IMG/VR virus record: IMGVR_UViG_3300028833_000074
Coordinates: 32,001 to 96,000 of that record
Reading direction: 5' to 3' (one strand)
Source of the DNA: a virus
Taxonomy: Duplodnaviria > Caudoviricetes
DNA: 64,000 nucleotides
A program made the translations under genes and the position numbers. This document shows positions 43,794 through 61,065 of the stretch, one piece after another. The notes under the pieces were generated by a model. The model ran no database searches, was not told where the DNA came from, and worked only from the letters and a program-made list of their open reading frames with translations. Numbering within the stretch: the stretch's first letter is position 1; every line of letters starts with the position of its first letter.

Positions 43794-44000
43794 TTACCAA
43801 TCTTTTAATGCTAATTTAACATCTTGGGCTTGGACAGTTTTTCTACCAGCGTGTTTTGCGTAAGTAGTAGCCTTTTGAGATACAGAGATAACATAATCTT
43901 CTGCAGCTTGACCCAAAATGTCAATTGCGTCTGTGCTTACTCTTTCTGCACCTACACCTTTAAGTAATCTTGCAGTTGGTGCTTTTGGATATTCACTCAT
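43794..44000 (-). CDS. Archaeal histone (HMfA/HMfB family), 68 aa
   Basis: MSEYPKAPTARLLKGVGAERVS...AKHAGRKTVQAQDVKLA aligns with the HMf consensus; GGAGG RBS before ATG 44000. Confidence 0.95.
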   Translation of the reverse strand: MSEYPKAPTARLLKGVGAERVSTDAIDILGQAAEDYVISVSQKATTYAKHAGRKTVQAQDVKLALKDW

Positions 44001-44090
44001 ATTTTTAGCCTCCATGTTTTTTTTATTTCGCACGAAACTTAAACGTTGTAATACAACATTTTAATCTCACACAATATAATATTAGCATAA

Positions 44091-48864: not shown

Positions 48865-49060
48865 CTAATTTTAATATTTTTCCTTGAGAAATATCCATAA
48901 AAATTTCAGTAGGTAATATTTCTCTCACTTCATAATTTTGTTTTATTGCTTTATCAATATCATCAACACTAATAATACCTATAAACTCATCATGTTCATA
49001 GATTAACAAAAAATTTTTCCACAACTCCCATACACTAATTCCTAATAAATCTTTATACAT
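48848..49060 (-). CDS. Hypothetical protein
   Basis: GGAGG RBS, coupled to both neighbours. Confidence 0.55.
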   Translation of the reverse strand: MYKDLLGISVWELWKNFLLIYEHDEFIGIISVDDIDKAIKQNYEVREILPTEIFMDISQGKILKLGDSSD

Positions 49061-49712
49061 TTTCTTCCTCCGCAACACGTTTGAAATTTGCGTAAACATC
49101 TTTAGCAAACACAATTGATGTTTTCTTTAAGGCCATCAAATGTAATCTTTTCTTATTATATGTTGGATTTTTATATTTATATTGCGTTTTATAATAACGA
49201 TATAATTCTGCAAACTCATCATCGTTTGCAATTAATTTACTCGTACATCGTATGATTGCTTTTTTTAAATCTTCACAGTAATCAATAGGGTCTTGTTTTT
49301 TATTGGCAACAATCTGCCCCCTACTGTATTTCTTAATTTTAGAATAATAATTTTTATTTCTTACAACTGGAGATAAACCAGCATATGATAAAAAATGCTT
49401 ACGATTTTGAAAACGCTGAATGTCACCTATCTCGACAATAAGTTCGGCAGCATCATATAAATTAATATAAGGTACTTTGCGTAAAAAACTCATATATTCT
49501 TCTGAAAAAAATAAAATATTTTGTATTTCATCTCTTAACATTTGCAAAGGACTATCAAAAGGTAATATACTAATATTTTCAAGCCTATTATATCTTGATG
49601 ATGATATATCACCAAAACTTATTAAACGATGTTTATTACTCTTTTGTGCATTAAAAACAGTTTTATTCGTGTTAAATAATATTGATAAAACTTTACGCTC
49701 ACTTGAATCCAT
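49053..49712 (-). CDS. IS110/Nop-domain protein lacking the RuvC domain (TasA-like)
   Basis: VPYINLYDAAELIVEIGDIQRFQNRKHFLSYAGLSP matches the IS116/IS110/IS902 (Transposase_20) motif; C-terminal LY..YK..Y...HLMALKK; no DEDD domain and no catalytic SG loop. Confidence 0.75.
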   Translation of the reverse strand: MDSSERKVLSILFNTNKTVFNAQKSNKHRLISFGDISSSRYNRLENISILPFDSPLQMLRDEIQNILFFSEEYMSFLRKVPYINLYDAAELIVEIGDIQRFQNRKHFLSYAGLSPVVRNKNYYSKIKKYSRGQIVANKKQDPIDYCEDLKKAIIRCTSKLIANDDEFAELYRYYKTQYKYKNPTYNKKRLHLMALKKTSIVFAKDVYANFKRVAEEENV

Positions 49713-49716
49713 TGTT

Positions 49717-50343
49717 TCACATCCTTAAAATATTATTTTTGGCTTTTTTAGATAAACGTGGTATTTTATCTAATTCATCTTCAGTTGCTGTTAATACTTT
49801 GCTTGGTTTTTTAAAATTTTTCAATAATGTGCGAGCAGTTTGTTTTCCTACACCATCAATACCAATTAAAACATTAATAAAAGCATTGGAATCTTTTTTT
49901 CTTACAATAGGATATTCTAATGGTTCTGTAGATTTATCAATATTATTAATAATTGATGAAATGCAAGAAACAAATTGTTTAAAGTTACTTGCAACAAATA
50001 CTGGGGTTTTATAACGAATCATCAACGACGCAATATTTCCAAATTTTTCATTATTTGTTTGTTGTGTCACATATTGTTCGTTCATTTTAAAATCATCATA
50101 AATAATAATAAATGAAAAAGGCGTTAATTCTTTCATTTGCAAAGCCTCTTTCTGAATTTGTCTATTTCGACAAGATGTGATAAAATCTTGAATTGTTTTC
50201 GTCTCAATTAATATATCTTTTTTACCTTCTTGTAAAATTGCAATATCACCAGAAATTAAACGTTCTACTTTCAAATCTGGAAAATAATTACGTAATTTTG
50301 CAATACGTTCATCATCTTCTCTATCATCAACAAGAATATGCAT
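49717..50343 (-). CDS. ERCC4/XPF (Hef-like) structure-specific nuclease with HhH
   Basis: VDDRE, GDI, IETKT..DF and IDGVG..TA HhH motifs. Confidence 0.9.
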   Translation of the reverse strand: MHILVDDREDDERIAKLRNYFPDLKVERLISGDIAILQEGKKDILIETKTIQDFITSCRNRQIQKEALQMKELTPFSFIIIYDDFKMNEQYVTQQTNNEKFGNIASLMIRYKTPVFVASNFKQFVSCISSIINNIDKSTEPLEYPIVRKKDSNAFINVLIGIDGVGKQTARTLLKNFKKPSKVLTATEDELDKIPRLSKKAKNNILRM

Positions 50344-52872: not shown

Positions 52873-53592
52873 TTATATTCTTATTTGTCTAACATTATTT
52901 ATAAATGTTTCACTATCATTTGTTTGATACTCAACAAACATTCCAGTCATGATATCTCTTGGAATATCATTATAAGCATTTTGACAAGTAATATAATTTT
53001 TTACATTTTCTGGAGTACGCAATGACAAGCGTAAACATTTAGTACCCTTTTTAGATGTAAAATATGTTGCTTGTTTCACTAAAGCAATATCATTGTCGTA
53101 TTCATATGGATTGGCTTCGGTAATAGTTTCTTCAGCAATACCATTAATATAATTTGCTTCTAATACAAAACTATCATCTACACTAAAGTCAATCATGAAA
53201 TGCATATACAATCGCCCACCATATGAATGACAATTAATGATAATAACATGCCCAGTTTCAAAATATTTACCATAACGATGCACCAAAACCTCGCTACAAG
53301 AAACACTTTGATTTACATCCTTATTTTGAATATGCAAAATGGTGTATCCTTTTTTATTATCAACATCAATAATAATGCCCTTGACATATAACTCTTCTGT
53401 GTCATCTTCAATATCATTAAGGTCAGTAAGCAAATCATCATAAGGTGTTTCGATATTATCAATATATTCTTCCCTAATTGAAAAAGATAATGCAGAAAAT
53501 TCTTTAGCAAGAACATCTTTTTTAGAGTAATATTGATTTTCATTTTTAAAATAATTAATTAAGTCTGTCCTTTTTTTAATAATATCTTCCAT
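52873..53592 (-). CDS. OB-fold protein, probably the C-terminal part of the split DnaE
   Basis: KEFSALSFS (cf. EKE.LG.Y.S) then VKGIIIDVDNKKG OB strand; directly follows the polymerase core. Confidence 0.6.
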   Translation of the reverse strand: MEDIIKKRTDLINYFKNENQYYSKKDVLAKEFSALSFSIREEYIDNIETPYDDLLTDLNDIEDDTEELYVKGIIIDVDNKKGYTILHIQNKDVNQSVSCSEVLVHRYGKYFETGHVIIINCHSYGGRLYMHFMIDFSVDDSFVLEANYINGIAEETITEANPYEYDNDIALVKQATYFTSKKGTKCLRLSLRTPENVKNYITCQNAYNDIPRDIMTGMFVEYQTNDSETFINNVRQIRI

Positions 53593-53596
53593 AATA

Positions 53597-55387
53597 TCAC
53601 ATCAATGTTGTTTGTTTGTATTGATTTTCATGAACGATTGGGATATCATCAAAAGCACCAGCCCATATTAATGATTCTCTAACTCTTTTGTTACATGCAC
53701 GTGGAGCAATACGTAAACAAAAGTCTTCAAATGATAAAAATTTACCCTTTTTACGTTCTCGTAAGATTGCTTGAGATATTTTATTAGATACATTAGCAAC
53801 CAAATTTAAGCCCATATAAATTTTATTATCAGCAATAATTGTATTTGCTTCACTAATATTAATATTTGGTCCACATAATTCCGCATCACTTTCTTTTATC
53901 ATATTTAAAATCTCTACACGTTTTTCTTCTTCTTTAGTATTTTGGAGCATTGCAATTGCAAATTCCAAAGGATAATAAGTTTTCAACCATGCAGATTGAT
54001 AAGACACAGCAGAATATGAATAACAATGTGCTTTGTTGAAAGAATATTCAGAAGCATTTTCAATATCTGACCACAATTTCTCTGCCACTTCTTTTTGAAC
54101 ATTATTATCTATACAACCTTGTATAAATTTAGGTTTATATAAGTCAAAGGCTTCTTTTTTCTTTTTGGATACTGCTCTACGTAAATTATCTGTGTCAAGG
54201 TCAGACATACCGGCAAGTTGATTAGCCACTTGCATAATATTTTCTTGATATATCATAAGACCGAATGTATCACCAAGAATATCTTGTAAACGTGGGTCTG
54301 CATATGTAACTTCTTTCCTACCAAATTTATAATCACAATAAAGGTCTAAATAACCACTATTTCTTGCTCCGGGCCTAATAAGTGCAATAACATCCATTAA
54401 TTCGTTAAAATTATCTGGATGTATTTGCTTTGTACCAGATATACCAGCACCTTGTTCTAATTGAAAAATACCCATTGTATTACGATTGATTGTTTCAAAA
54501 ACTTTTGGGTCATCAAAATCATAAGGCAAATGAACATCATCATCAATTAATTCTAAAGTGTCCTTATGAATATCTAATACTGCCACACCAAGACAGTCAT
54601 TCTTTAGAAAACCCATCGCTTCACATTCACTACCATCATTAGAGATAACATCCTTACCAGTTACTGATATAGTTGAACAATAATTATCAATATCACCATC
54701 AAGAATTATCATACCACCGGCATGCACCCCATATGATTTAGTCAAACCGACAAGGTCATCAATATAATCTCTAACTTCAGTATGTTCATTTAAAAAATCC
54801 ATAACTTTAACATTATCATGATAATCTTCATTAGGTGCTAAATAAGATGTAACCTTGTTAACAACTTGAAAGTCAATACCTTGTCTTGCTGATAAATCCT
54901 TGATTAGCATTTTAGGTGTAAATTTTAATTTTGTTATCATTTGCCCAGTACATTCTTCACCATATATATCACGAATATATTGTAAGGCTTCATCTCTTTG
55001 TGATGAAGCAAAATCTGAATCTATATCCGGTAATGATGTCATTACTCTTGTTTTATTTAGAAAACGAGAAAATGATAATCCAAAGCCTTTGGGTGGAAGT
55101 TTAGTAATGTTTAATGCATAACAAACCACACTACCTACTGCAGAACCCCTACCGGCACTTCTAATAATACCTTTATCATCCAAGTAAGCAAGAATATAAG
55201 CAGTATTTAAAAAAAAGTTTTCCAAACCACAATCAAATATTACATTCAATTCATATTCTAATTGTGATTGGTACCATTCATCATCGCCAACACCTTTAAT
55301 GCGTAAACCACGTTGGCACATTTGTTTGATAAAATTTTTGTTATCTTCTTCAAAATCAAAAAAAGTTTGTTGCGCATCTCTTATCAT
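53597..55387 (-). CDS. dnaE: DNA polymerase III alpha (family C) catalytic core
   Basis: GRGSAVGS, PDIDSDF, HAGG, KNDCLG, GIFQLE, ALIRPG, YQE, YSFNKAH, AGAFD. Confidence 0.95.
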   Translation of the reverse strand: MIRDAQQTFFDFEEDNKNFIKQMCQRGLRIKGVGDDEWYQSQLEYELNVIFDCGLENFFLNTAYILAYLDDKGIIRSAGRGSAVGSVVCYALNITKLPPKGFGLSFSRFLNKTRVMTSLPDIDSDFASSQRDEALQYIRDIYGEECTGQMITKLKFTPKMLIKDLSARQGIDFQVVNKVTSYLAPNEDYHDNVKVMDFLNEHTEVRDYIDDLVGLTKSYGVHAGGMIILDGDIDNYCSTISVTGKDVISNDGSECEAMGFLKNDCLGVAVLDIHKDTLELIDDDVHLPYDFDDPKVFETINRNTMGIFQLEQGAGISGTKQIHPDNFNELMDVIALIRPGARNSGYLDLYCDYKFGRKEVTYADPRLQDILGDTFGLMIYQENIMQVANQLAGMSDLDTDNLRRAVSKKKKEAFDLYKPKFIQGCIDNNVQKEVAEKLWSDIENASEYSFNKAHCYSYSAVSYQSAWLKTYYPLEFAIAMLQNTKEEEKRVEILNMIKESDAELCGPNINISEANTIIADNKIYMGLNLVANVSNKISQAILRERKKGKFLSFEDFCLRIAPRACNKRVRESLIWAGAFDDIPIVHENQYKQTTLM

Positions 55388-55396
55388 ACTATCCCC

Positions 55397-56335
55397 CTAA
55401 TAAATTTTATTGCAAAATATTTTTTTAAATTTTTTATGTTGAGTAAAATTTGGAATAATTCTTTCATATTCTGGCATCTCAAAATAGCATTTTTCTGCAA
55501 TTTTATGTGTATTGTCAATGCAAGTTTGTATCAACTTGTCATCTTCTAATCCACTTTGATGCGCAAATTGATATGAATAGTCACTATTGCCTAAAATATT
55601 ACTAATTAATGTTTCGTTAATTTCGCTCTCTGGCTTTTTCCAATTGATAGATTGTATTTTCCTTCTTAATTTTCTGTCTTCATCCAATAGGACATGACTA
55701 TCAAAGGTATTAATAATGTATTTTGCATCTGTATCTTCATATAATTCTACCAATTTATTGTTTAAATAATTTTGAACCGGCAATCCAGTTTTATCATCAA
55801 TGTATGTTGGGTGATATTGCAATTCAACTGCAACATTGTCTTTTCCAAAGTAATCTAATAATTTATTGAAAAAATCATATGCTATATCATCTTTTTGATT
55901 TAAAAAGCATTGATTGATGTAAGAAAGTGAGCAAGCAGTTGATACAAAAATGCCTTCTGGATTGGTATTAAATAAAACTGGATGTGGCAATAAAGGTTTG
56001 TAATAAAAATGCTGTTTAACTGATAATCTTTGCATTTTTCTAATACTTTTAGCACCTCGCTCATTCATAGCCAACAAGACTAAATGATATCGTGTTTGAC
56101 CTTGTGGCTTACCCATCATAGTTTTACAATAAAATTCATTTCCAAACAATGGTTTAACATTGGTATCTTTACATGCTTCCTTTAGGGCATACCAATTCGC
56201 AAGACTACCATGGTCTGTAACTGCTACATATTCTTGCTCATAAATTTGAATTTGATTAATTAATTCTGGCACTTTAATGACAGAATCACCTACAGATGCA
56301 TCAGTATGTAAATGTAAATTTACGAAATTATCCAT
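55397..56335 (-). CDS. Stand-alone PHP domain of DNA polymerase III alpha
   Basis: HLHTD.S..D, TDHG, GNE, HLVLLA, TAC, ELQ.H, DSH metal ligands intact. Confidence 0.92.
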   Translation of the reverse strand: MDNFVNLHLHTDASVGDSVIKVPELINQIQIYEQEYVAVTDHGSLANWYALKEACKDTNVKPLFGNEFYCKTMMGKPQGQTRYHLVLLAMNERGAKSIRKMQRLSVKQHFYYKPLLPHPVLFNTNPEGIFVSTACSLSYINQCFLNQKDDIAYDFFNKLLDYFGKDNVAVELQYHPTYIDDKTGLPVQNYLNNKLVELYEDTDAKYIINTFDSHVLLDEDRKLRRKIQSINWKKPESEINETLISNILGNSDYSYQFAHQSGLEDDKLIQTCIDNTHKIAEKCYFEMPEYERIIPNFTQHKKFKKIFCNKIY

Positions 56336-59738: not shown

Positions 59739-59766
59739 AAAAAAAAGCCCACCTAAAAAGGTGGGC
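59739..59766 (-). terminator. Hairpin + U-tract between convergent units
   Basis: GCCCACC-loop-GGTGGGC with an A8 run on its left (U-tract on minus). Confidence 0.75.
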
Positions 59767-59787
59767 CAAAAAGGAATAACAAATGAG

Positions 59788-60003
59788 TTAACATGATTTA
59801 ATAACTTGTAAACTTGTTTTAAATTGATAAGTATCAATTAATTGTCTATTAAAAATTTTATATTTATGAACAATATATAAATTATCTTTTTTTGTAATAA
59901 TATAAGCAATATTATTATCCTTATAATATATTAATTCATATTTATCAATAGTATCAAAATCATCTTTTTTTAAACTACGATTAAAAACTATCATTGTACA
60001 CAC
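59788..60003 (-). CDS. Hypothetical protein
   Basis: 71 aa ORF downstream of the tRNA cluster. Confidence 0.4.
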   Translation of the reverse strand: MCTMIVFNRSLKKDDFDTIDKYELIYYKDNNIAYIITKKDNLYIVHKYKIFNRQLIDTYQFKTSLQVIKSC

Positions 60004-60013
60004 ATCTTATCAA

Positions 60014-60086
60014 AGCTACATGAGAGACTTGAACTCTCGACATCCAGATTACAAGTCTGGCGGTCTACCAACTAACCTAATGTAGC
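60014..60086 (-). tRNA. tRNA-Thr(UGU)
   Basis: GCTACAT/ATGTAGC acceptor, CCAGA-CTTGTAA-TCTGG anticodon arm, GAGAG-TTCAAGT-CTCTC T arm, U73, no encoded CCA. Confidence 0.95.
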
Positions 60087-60100
60087 ATAGGTGGTGTTAA

Positions 60101-60177
60101 TTTTACTTCTTAACCCAAGAAGACTTTTTATGACTCTTATATACGAATGTGGGGGTAAAAATATATAAGTCTTGTCA
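60101..60177 (-). ncRNA. Structured RNA motif, copy 1
   Basis: TGACAAGA-CTTATATA[loop]TATATAAG-AGTCA-TAAAAAGT-CTTCTT[loop]AAGAAG-TAAAA. Confidence 0.65.
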
Positions 60178-60198
60178 GTAGGACGATATTATGAGTCT

Positions 60199-60270
60199 TT
60201 TTACTTCTCTACTTCAGAAGACTTTTAACGACTCTTATAGTAAAACATAAAAAAACTATAAGTCTTGTCA
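60199..60270 (-). ncRNA. Structured RNA motif, copy 2
   Basis: TGACAAGA-CTTATAG[loop]CTATAAG-AGTCG-TTAAAAGT-CTTCT[loop]AGAAG-TAAAA; compensatory change relative to copy 1. Confidence 0.65.
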
Positions 60271-60310
60271 AGGAGTTAAAAAATTACAATTTGCAATGAA
60301 GTGAAAATTT

Positions 60311-60400
60311 ATAAGCCCCGATTACATAATCCCAAAAAATTAAATCATGATAACTTATTATTATATCCTTTCGGATAACGAGGCTTATTATATCATGATT
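60311..60400 (-). ncRNA. Candidate pseudoknotted RNA with a GAAA tetraloop
   Basis: Interleaved 10-bp stems AATCATGATA/TATCATGATT and ATAAGCCTCG/CGGGGCTTAT; TATCC-GAAA-GGATA. Confidence 0.5.
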
Positions 60401-60403
60401 AAG

Positions 60404-60475
60404 TCAGTATAAGTGGATTTGCACCACTATCTCCCACCACGTGTATTGGGTGTTTTACTATTAAACTATATACTG
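60404..60475 (-). ncRNA. tRNA-like cloverleaf with a non-canonical anticodon arm
   Basis: CAGTATA/TATACTG acceptor, GTTT/AAAC D stem, AGTGG-TGCAAAT-CCACT T arm; CCCA-ATACACGTGG-TGGG has no 7-nt loop or U33. Confidence 0.75.
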
Positions 60476-60476
60476 A

Positions 60477-60567
60477 TTATGTCGAATGGGGAAAGGAAAT
60501 GATTTAATGATTAGTACACCTAACAATTGTGCATAGTAAACGAAGGTAAAAAACCCATTCGACATAA
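60477..60567 (-). ncRNA. Candidate RNA: 14-bp closing stem with a large internal loop
   Basis: Perfect TTATGTCGAATGGG/CCCATTCGACATAA; inner TGCAC/GTGTA hairpin. Confidence 0.55.
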
Positions 60568-60608
60568 CGACAGTTGAATTCGAGAAATGGAGAAATAACA
60601 TGCTCCAA

Positions 60609-60681
60609 AGCCACAGACCGGAATCGAACCGGCACTCTACGACTTACGAAGTCGTCGCATTGCCAATTATGCTACTGTGGC
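60609..60681 (-). tRNA. tRNA-Thr(CGU)
   Basis: GCCACAG/CTGTGGC acceptor, ACGAC-TTCGTAA-GTCGT anticodon arm, GCCGG-TTCGATT-CCGGT T arm, U73, no CCA. Confidence 0.95.
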
Positions 60682-60691
60682 GGACAAAGGC

Positions 60692-61021
60692 TTAAACACC
60701 TTCATCCCCAATCATGTCATCAAAGGCATGTTCATCATTACCAGCAATATATCTTGTTCCAGCAGTAATTATACCATCAGTAATTTGTGGAGCAGTATAC
60801 GCTGTAATAGCGGCCACATACCAATTACTGAATAATTCTGGTTGAGAATAGGATAAAGCAATTGCTGCTAATACACCTACAATAATAGTTGTAATTGAAC
60901 CAAGATTAAAACTAATCTCTTTTCCATTACGATAAAATGTAGGCAATACAAAACTACCTTTCATAATGACCAGTCTAAAGATTATTGCAATAATTATTGC
61001 AACATAAATAGTACTATTCAA
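60692..61021 (-). CDS. Small multi-TM membrane protein (holin-like)
   Basis: GGAGGA RBS before TTG 61021; two to three hydrophobic helices and an acidic tail. Confidence 0.55.
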   Translation of the reverse strand: MNSTIYVAIIIAIIFRLVIMKGSFVLPTFYRNGKEISFNLGSITTIIVGVLAAIALSYSQPELFSNWYVAAITAYTAPQITDGIITAGTRYIAGNDEHAFDDMIGDEGV

Positions 61022-61047: not shown

Positions 61048-61065
61048 ACATATATAACTTTTCTT
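61048..61065 (-). promoter_or_regulatory. BRE-TATA promoter upstream of the membrane gene and RNA cluster
   Basis: AAGAAAAG-TTATATATG. Confidence 0.65.

Follow-up and report, generated by a model that had tools for sequence, protein, structure and literature searches.

We found that an RNA island in the genome of a tailed archaeal virus contains three previously unrecognized structured RNAs. They are a pseudoknotted RNA, a closed-stem RNA and a two-hairpin motif that is present in two copies. The island (positions 60014 to 60681) lies in the 64,000-nt stretch of DNA that we analyzed (the window), which is bases 32001-96000 of the 152,284-bp IMG/VR virus record IMGVR_UViG_3300028833_000074, rated complete. 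The G+C content across the window is 26-33%. Based on sequence comparisons, we conclude that the three RNAs are real and new viral structured RNAs, because relatives of the virus keep the folds through paired base changes. On balance, we lean toward the view that the site is a hypervariable island of tRNAs and small RNAs in a ~150-kb tailed virus of a methanogen-type archaeon, and that its RNAs are processed and act in trans. Below, coordinates are those of the window and features are on its minus strand unless stated otherwise; L-numbers (L004-L042) designate the related virus loci and contigs that we compared with the window.

Read 5' to 3', the island consists of tRNA-Thr(CGU), the closed-stem RNA, a tRNA-like cloverleaf, the pseudoknotted RNA, copies 1 and 2 of the two-hairpin motif, and tRNA-Thr(UGU). 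A preliminary description of the site had listed these elements in this order, and all of them were found again using ARAGORN, Rfam and inspection of the sequence. The tight spacing that it reported was also confirmed: the closed-stem RNA ends 1 nt before the cloverleaf, and the first helix (P1) of the pseudoknotted RNA begins 3 nt past it. It had called the RNAs unrecognized, and indeed tRNA was the only family matched when the window and its relatives were searched against Rfam, both at the gathering thresholds and at E <= 10. In relatives, we found compensatory changes in all three of the non-tRNA elements.

The pseudoknotted RNA (60311..60400) is ~90 nt long and is predicted to fold as an H-type pseudoknot. 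P1 (10 bp) pairs 60391-60400 with 60343-60352, the inner hairpin P2 is at 60364-60377, and a short and variable hairpin, P3, is at 60320-60331. The pseudoknot (PK) helix (9 bp) pairs 60379-60387 with 60311-60319, with AAGCCUCG and CGGGGCUU as its complementary strands. We aligned 15 distinct sequences. Standard pairs made up 97.6% of the pair cells, ~40% with partners slid, and changes on both sides were found in 6 of the 10 pairs in P1 and 4 of the 5 pairs in P2. The long-range helix, UAAGCCUC/G(G/A)GGCUUA, was invariant apart from U-G versus U-A. The junctions UAUAAUAAGCCUCGUU and AUAAUAAUAAGUUA were invariant, as was a U-tract followed by GGG between the helices. In total there were 44 invariant columns, mostly in junctions; the stems covaried and the loops varied. 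The preliminary description had assigned the elements to the minus strand based on G-U pairs and a GAAA tetraloop. The strand and the G-U pairs stand, but the tetraloop, which is present in the window, is not conserved in relatives. G-U pairs fit only on the minus strand, and a covariance model scored 84-113 bits on the sense strand versus 27 bits or less on the antisense strand, a difference of about four-fold. We therefore assign the RNA to the minus strand.

Each genome had a single copy of the pseudoknotted RNA, and no version of the site lacked it, not even that of L004, which has no tRNA genes. In L004, the 688-nt gap of the window is reduced to ~180 nt and the pseudoknotted RNA is all that it contains. 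That is, this RNA is the fixed core of the island in the whole virus family. There was no Rfam match beyond noise over 60297-60403 (E <= 10), and none of 185,579 prokaryote genomes contained the pseudoknot pattern. A weak hairpin followed by U6 (60278..60297), read from the sequence, lies 3' of the pseudoknotted RNA and may be a partial terminator. L012 has a similar hairpin and U-run.

These comparisons drew on ~20 independent versions of the site, obtained from contigs carrying homologues of the membrane protein gene described below and from a pattern scan of metagenomes. The relatives are ~150-kb viruses from metagenomes. A search with the core gene of DnaE led to L004 and L005, and in L004 a run of 14 genes has the same order as in the window, with proteins that are 28-71% identical (27.5% in the most diverged case). 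Across the lineages that show compensatory changes, flanking proteins are only 55-86% identical. BLAST against GenBank phages found nothing meaningful for the island region, and a neighboring 334-aa open reading frame (ORF) used as the query found no relatives.

The closed-stem RNA (60477..60567, 91 nt) has a perfect 14-bp stem around C/U-rich single strands that include the conserved strand AAAUCAUUUCCUUUCC. Its predicted folding energy is -21.7 kcal/mol (z = -3.9). Among the relatives it was found only in L007, L011 and L012, so that its alignment is small. In these four sequences the 14-bp stem is 100% paired, three pairs have changed on both sides, and AAAUCAUUUCCUUUCC is conserved. We found no further copy in this genome.

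The two copies of the two-hairpin motif are at 60184..60273 (copy 1; 97.5 bits with our model, R2) and 60087..60180 (copy 2; 97.8 bits; loop ACCCCCACAUUCG, tail ACACCACCU). The consensus is GACAAGAC, stem A, GAGUCNUWAAAAG, stem B and GUAAA. In a small alignment of 8 copies from 4 lineages, 98.9% of the cells were paired, with two-sided changes in 5 of 7 pairs of stem A and 2 of 5 pairs of stem B. Among the loci compared, the motif was confined to the window (two copies), L007 (two), L012 (at least one, as the contig ends inside a copy) and L014 (one, located 3' of the small ORF). The L007 orthologue of copy 2 has a loop that is larger by 40 nt and retains both stems. There was no further copy in this genome, and an exact-pattern scan of IMG/VR for the motif yielded nothing. 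Two other readings of copy 1 were rejected. The first was an outer GAGUC/GACUC helix around stem B, which neither L007 nor the copy-2 sequences preserve. The second was TTGACA as a bacterial -35 element; the copy-2 sequences do not keep this word, and the host is an archaeon.

The tRNA genes around the core differ from lineage to lineage. L004 has none, L014 has tRNA-Thr(CGU) alone, and L007 has tRNAs for Thr(CGU), Met and Thr(UGU). The site has tRNAs for Thr, Cys, Gln and Tyr in L013, an intron-bearing tRNA-Thr and a tRNA-Gln in L017 and L020, tRNAs for Thr, Gln and Trp in L031, and tRNAs for Arg, Thr, Ser and Tyr in L033. L007, L011 and L012 have no tRNA-like unit, and in these the closed-stem RNA and the pseudoknotted RNA are contiguous. 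The preliminary description had taken punctuation by tRNAs as the feature that organizes the cluster. The absence of tRNAs in L004, of the tRNA-like unit in L007, L011 and L012, and the position of the L014 motif after the small ORF do not agree with this as a conserved feature. Since tRNA content differs by lineage around a pseudoknot that is kept, the tRNAs are mobile additions and not the organizing principle. Other insertions occur too. L038 and L039 have a 49-aa ORF inserted downstream of the pseudoknot. In the same two loci (L038:1165-1350 and L039:2093-2280), tRNA-Gln and tRNA-Tyr flank a stretch of ~190 nt that matches nothing in Rfam and whose ends, AUACCUUG...CAAGGUAU, are complementary over a long range. 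This stretch may be a further structured RNA of the island.

We found that the island lies within a short operon that also has two small genes for proteins, rather than a stand-alone cassette of noncoding RNAs. The preliminary description had proposed such a pure cassette and had overlooked both ORFs. The order of the unit is a TATA-like box, an ORF for a membrane protein, the RNA island, a 68-aa ORF, and a terminator. The promoter and terminator that had been reported to bracket the cluster are there. The TATA-like box, TTATATAT (61050..61057), is a putative archaeal promoter whose position is kept in relatives: (T)TATATATA precedes the Shine-Dalgarno sequence of the membrane ORF by ~30 nt in most of the lineages compared (L004, L007, L013, L017 and L039-L041), and L014 has only a looser AT-rich stretch at this position. 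The terminator (59739..59767), read from the sequence, is a GGCCCACC/GGTGGGC hairpin followed by T8, and a hairpin and T-run are also found 3' of the small ORF in L004, L007 and L014. That is, a single TATA box and a single terminator bracket the whole unit.

The membrane ORF (60692..61021, 109 aa) is the first gene of the unit and has a TTG start after AGGAGG. TTG 61021 is the likely start codon because the alternative ATG at 61051 falls within the TATA box. This ORF has 175 homologues, many of them on contigs of 130-157 kb, and no match in Pfam or PHROG. The 68-aa ORF (59788..59994) is the last gene and is kept in all relatives, with a mean column identity of 68% in an alignment of 9 sequences. 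An AlphaFold model of its product (predicted local distance difference test score, pLDDT, of 91) has a small beta sheet and a C-terminal helix, and the protein belongs to no Pfam or PHROG family. We considered that the product might have an RNA-binding fold and rejected this, as the model had no neighbor in the PDB.

The three tRNA-shaped units of the island are the only matches to the tRNA model in the 152-kb genome. tRNA-Thr(CGU) (60609..60681; 67.1 bits) and tRNA-Thr(UGU) (60014..60086; 70.6 bits) were called by both ARAGORN and Rfam. The tRNA-like cloverleaf (60404..60475) scored 50.4 bits in a search with permissive filters, so that all three units are above the gathering threshold of 29 bits for the Rfam tRNA family (RF00005). 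ARAGORN made no call at the cloverleaf. Both tRNA-Thr have the features of functional decoders, that is, a 5-bp anticodon stem, a 7-nt loop with U33, G18G19 in the D loop, and U54-U55-C56 in the T loop. The cloverleaf does not. Its acceptor, D and T stems are intact, and it has an anticodon arm of 4 bp with a 10-nt loop (AUACACGUGG), a D loop (AAUAGUA) that lacks GG, and UGCAAAU as the T loop. We regard it as an aberrant tRNA or as a candidate t-element. We found no relatives of the cloverleaf elsewhere, either by BLAST against GenBank phages or in a scan of IMG/VR for the exact T-arm and acceptor pattern. A crude regular-expression scan outside the window picked up candidate minihelices with an acceptor stem and T arm, at ~140880 and 143147 of the full record (G000:C1, minus strand), with no clear result. 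If these are real, then tRNA-shaped punctuation would be a general habit of the virus. We also noted that in long ORFs ACA makes up 52% of the Thr codons and ACG only 3.6%, yet the virus carries tRNA-Thr(CGU). Many archaea do not have tRNAs with CNN anticodons. The host may likewise lack a tRNA-Thr with the CGU anticodon.

The host of this virus is archaeal. L017-L019 and L020 have an insert of ~31 nt right after position 37 of tRNA-Thr(UGU) (L017:2882-2987, plus strand, also in L018 and L019; L020:6098-6202, minus strand). The insert folds into a canonical archaeal bulge-helix-bulge (BHB) with a 4-bp helix, CUUG/CAAG, and two 3-nt bulges, and its removal restores the loop CUUGUAA. The intron helix shows compensatory changes between the L017 and L020 lineages. 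Splicing of this intron needs the archaeal splicing endonuclease; the intron-bearing viral tRNA-Thr depends on this host enzyme. The window itself encodes an archaeal histone (PF00808, 54 bits; 43794-44033), a PriL-like primase subunit (PF04104; 50352-51281) and an ERCC4 nuclease (49717-50343). A preprint on the rumen virome (10.1101/2023.03.20.532305) describes clades of lytic Methanobrevibacter viruses with NrdD and dUTPase, and the window encodes NrdD. We infer that the host is a methanogen-type archaeon of the gut or rumen.

The NrdD query found only metagenome-assembled genomes labeled Bacilli, Erysipelotrichaceae or Clostridiales. Four of the contigs (L035, JAZNQD010000043.1; L036, CADAMI010000001.1; L037, SFKS01000002.1; L018, JAFWKU010000001.1) carry NrdD at 61-75% identity or the whole island. 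The contigs with these bacterial labels are probably mis-binned DNA of archaeal viruses. Two other genes of the window are worth mention. DnaE (52873-56335) is of the bacterial type and split into three genes (the PHP, core and OB parts), which is odd beside archaeal genes. A 219-aa protein (49053-49712) has only the C-terminal domain of Transposase_20 (IS110/IS116/IS902). We considered a bridge-RNA link between the island and this protein and found no support for it, as the domain is partial and the gene is ~10 kb away.

Based on these findings, we propose the following model. Lineages would have gained and lost tRNA genes, the closed-stem RNA, and one or two copies of the two-hairpin motif around the pseudoknot core. 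A single transcript would span the whole unit. RNase P and tRNase Z of the host would cut at both tRNA-Thr and at the cloverleaf, which with its acceptor and T arms and no decoding function could serve as a processing signal (a 't-element'). The preliminary description had suggested these cuts, and release of discrete RNAs by the two enzymes is plausible from the arrangement of the elements: their ends abut tRNA or tRNA-like units, and closed stems lie at the ends that the enzymes would create. In all lineages that we inspected (L007, L011, L013, L014, L017 and L038-L041), a hairpin of 4-8 bp is found 2 nt after every tRNA or run of tRNAs; its sequence varies and its place is fixed. In the window, this is a short hairpin, GGAG...CUCC (60589..60606), that begins 2 nt past the 3' end of tRNA-Thr(CGU). 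The cuts would thus free spacer RNAs whose ends are closed by the post-tRNA hairpin, the 14-bp stem, or P1. Such ends should resist exonucleases, and the spacer RNAs would survive. The released RNAs most likely would act on their own. For the pseudoknotted RNA our best guess is that it binds protein, given the invariant junctions and the U-tract and GGG between helices. For the C/U-rich single strands we guess that they could pair with purine-rich ribosome-binding regions.

Some other origins for the spacers were considered and rejected. Small ORFs at 60461-60601 and 60504-60635 that run over the spacers are not likely to be coding, as relatives show indels that are not in triplets and paired changes. 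Excision of the spacers by the BHB pathway would need, at the base of the element, two 3-nt bulges on opposite strands with a 4-bp helix between them; neither P1 (10 bp) nor the 14-bp stem is interrupted. When we scanned for BHB motifs with lax criteria, the true L017 intron was recovered, and matches in the island were at chance level only. The spacers are also not archaeal C/D box small RNAs, which have a C box (RUGAUGA) and a D box (CUGA) near their ends: UGAUGA does not occur in 60000-60700, and relatives do not keep the CUGA words.

Several words upstream of the pseudoknot bear on the pairing idea. GGAU(U/A)UCACCUCCU is found ~240-510 nt upstream in L017, L020, L031, L038, L039 and L041, between two hairpins after the first tRNA; it is close to the 3' end of 16S rRNA with its anti-Shine-Dalgarno sequence. 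AACCACAGAACUCCCUCCAAUUCC is ~70-105 nt upstream in L013, L017, L020, L026, L029, L031 and L038-L041. Outside the island, both words are nearly absent. The C-rich motifs of clade B, CACCUCC and CUCCCUCC, are at fixed distances upstream of the pseudoknot and almost nowhere else in those loci. A bolder proposal takes in these words. The pseudoknotted RNA would be a new functional class of viral RNA (a ribozyme, a sensor of a ligand or protein, or the scaffold of a viral ribonucleoprotein), universal in this family of gut and rumen methanogen viruses; the C-rich RNAs, among them one of sister lineages that nearly copies the 3' end of 16S rRNA (GGAUNUCACCUCCU), would act in trans, mask ribosome-binding sites and reprogram host translation. 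We consider this proposal, taken whole, to be rather doubtful.

Several findings weigh against processed, trans-acting RNAs or against parts of that model. The cloverleaf is confined to the near-identical L008-L010, so that selection maintaining it is not demonstrated. Fold energies of the cloverleaf and of the repeat copies, computed on single sequences, are no better than those of shuffled sequences (z = -0.55 to -1.0). The PK helix shows no two-sided covariation, its sequence being invariant, and what argues for it is conserved complementarity. GGAGG is rare (25 copies in the 152-kb genome), and the window, whose C-rich strands differ, has none of the exact anti-Shine-Dalgarno-like words of clade B; for these two reasons the base-pairing idea is weak for this virus. 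Lastly, in most lineages the pseudoknot is 20-45 nt upstream of the small ORF, which fits a cis-acting leader equally well.

That last observation introduces the main rival to our model, which we think unlikely but to be taken seriously. In it, the RNAs are cis-acting parts of the mRNA: a pseudoknot leader would control the 68-aa ORF at the level of translation or stability (autoregulation being one example), and the other hairpins would guard mRNA ends after excision of tRNAs. The spacing of 20-45 nt is seen in L004, L013, L014, L017, L020, L026, L033, L040 and L041, and in L038 and L039 the pseudoknot is at the same distance from the inserted 49-aa ORF. An A/U-rich stretch follows the pseudoknot on its 3' side. 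The minimal locus, L004, consists of just the membrane ORF, the pseudoknot and the small ORF, which is found as universally as the RNA, and in L014 the repeat motif is in a 3' untranslated region. Yet in both the window and L007 the pseudoknot is cut off from the ORF by a tRNA and the repeats; in L031 a tRNA comes directly after it, and in L012 the repeat motif follows directly, before the end of the contig. In such loci, excision of the tRNA would uncouple the pseudoknot from the ORF. Moreover, the pseudoknot does not overlap the ribosome-binding site of the ORF, and the modeled product has no recognizable RNA-binding fold. We also considered that the pseudoknotted RNA might be catalytic or might sense a ligand, as a new self-cleaving ribozyme for the tRNA transcript or as a riboswitch that gates read-through at the U-rich tract. 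The pattern of 44 invariant, junction-heavy columns with covarying stems and variable loops resembles that of ribozymes and riboswitches, and the nested double-pseudoknot order of strands is that of ribozymes like that of hepatitis delta virus (HDV). The base just before the 3' pseudoknot strand is an invariant C, tRNAs often lie nearby, a U-rich tract follows in many lineages, and the theta ribozymes provide a precedent (PMC10879173). However, there was no match to a ribozyme or riboswitch in Rfam, the inner hairpin has 4-7 bp and a variable loop, 12 conserved junction nucleotides separate it from the 3' strand of P1, and P1.1 cannot form. The invariant C is predicted to be paired, and L004 has no tRNA to process. 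We think this explanation improbable.

Two further explanations are much less probable still. The island could be functionless filler with decaying remnants of tRNAs, its stems having arisen by chance or as recent duplicates. Rapid turnover of tRNAs and a cloverleaf that looks like a damaged tRNA without conserved relatives are what filler would predict, but two-sided compensatory changes in three independent elements, and junctions that are invariant amid diverging DNA, are not. For the pseudoknotted RNA, the closed-stem RNA and the repeat motif, this explanation is largely refuted; for the cloverleaf alone it is possible. Least probable of all, the conserved element could act as DNA, that is, as a promoter, an origin, or a recombination site for insertion of tRNAs. 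The words TATAAT and ATAATAA occur in invariant junctions, and tRNAs have been gained and lost on both sides of the element. Against this, P1 and the PK helix have G-U pairs, at which the opposite strand would have A-C mismatches. In addition, the score of the sense strand is four times that of the antisense strand, and what covariation preserves is pairing rather than sequence.

Methanogens dominate methane production in the rumen and in the human gut. To our knowledge, hardly any noncoding RNAs are known from archaeal viruses and none from viruses of methanogens. The site adds three unrecognized RNA motifs with comparative support, one of which marks a whole family of ~150-kb viruses, and its covariance model can now be used to search any virome. 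It shows a viral operon that gains and loses tRNA genes around an RNA that stays in place, and it may be a simple system in which to study whether tRNA-shaped elements act as punctuation that releases small RNAs in archaea. It also allows contigs binned as Bacilli, Erysipelotrichaceae or Clostridiales to be relabeled as probable archaeal-virus DNA.

The closest analogue of the island is the tRNA region of phage T4 with RNAC and RNAD (species 1 and 2), which are released by tRNA-processing enzymes. These are small stable RNAs with no known role, whose genes lie among those for the viral tRNAs and which come from shared transcripts (PMC3014915). The island RNAs likewise are not tRNAs; viral tRNA genes flank them and share their strand and their predicted transcription unit. 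In contrast to T4, which infects bacteria, processing here would be by archaeal RNase P and tRNase Z, the island is inside an mRNA operon, and the core RNA is kept where there is no tRNA. There is no relation in sequence or structure.

Theta ribozymes are HDV-like ribozymes found beside tRNAs of gut phages, with a proposed role in processing tRNA transcripts (PMC10879173). The strand order of the pseudoknotted RNA (P1 5', PK 5', hairpin, P1 3', hairpin, PK 3') corresponds to their P1-P2-P3-P1'-P4-P2'. However, their core, in which a 3-bp P3 runs straight into the P1 3' strand and a conserved L3 forms P1.1 with J1/4, is absent: the inner hairpin has 4-7 bp and loops of GAAA, AUUU, GCAA, UUU and others, no loop CC is available for P1.1, and the 12-nt junction comes before the P1 3' strand. 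A further difference is the archaeal host. In HDV-like and theta ribozymes, the catalytic cytosine is the first position of J4/2 (PMC10879173). The invariant C of the window (60320), which precedes the 3' PK strand, can pair in P3 or with G60379, so that it is not in a free junction. We therefore rejected membership in the HDV-like ribozymes, based on the P3, L3 and P1.1 features and the absence of a match to the covariance models of the family.

The role proposed for the cloverleaf resembles that of the tRNA-like 't-element' of Haloferax, which directs tRNase Z to the 5S rRNA precursor; in both, a non-decoding tRNA shape would be a site of cutting. The Haloferax element belongs to a host rRNA operon, whereas the cloverleaf is viral, specific to a lineage, and its cut is a prediction. 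tRNA-shaped modules that recruit RNase P or RNase Z and release an adjoining noncoding RNA are also known from the tRNA-miRNA units of murine gammaherpesvirus 68 (MHV68) and from the mascRNA of MALAT1. These act in another domain of life, with other polymerases and downstream pathways, and are not homologous to the island. Finally, a pseudoknot in the leader of T4 gene 32 mRNA nucleates autoregulation. As in that leader, the pseudoknot of the island is followed by an A/U-rich unstructured stretch and lies upstream of a small viral gene. Unlike the gene 32 leader, the pseudoknot in the window is separated from its ORF by repeats and a tRNA, and the ORF product has no recognized nucleic-acid-binding fold.

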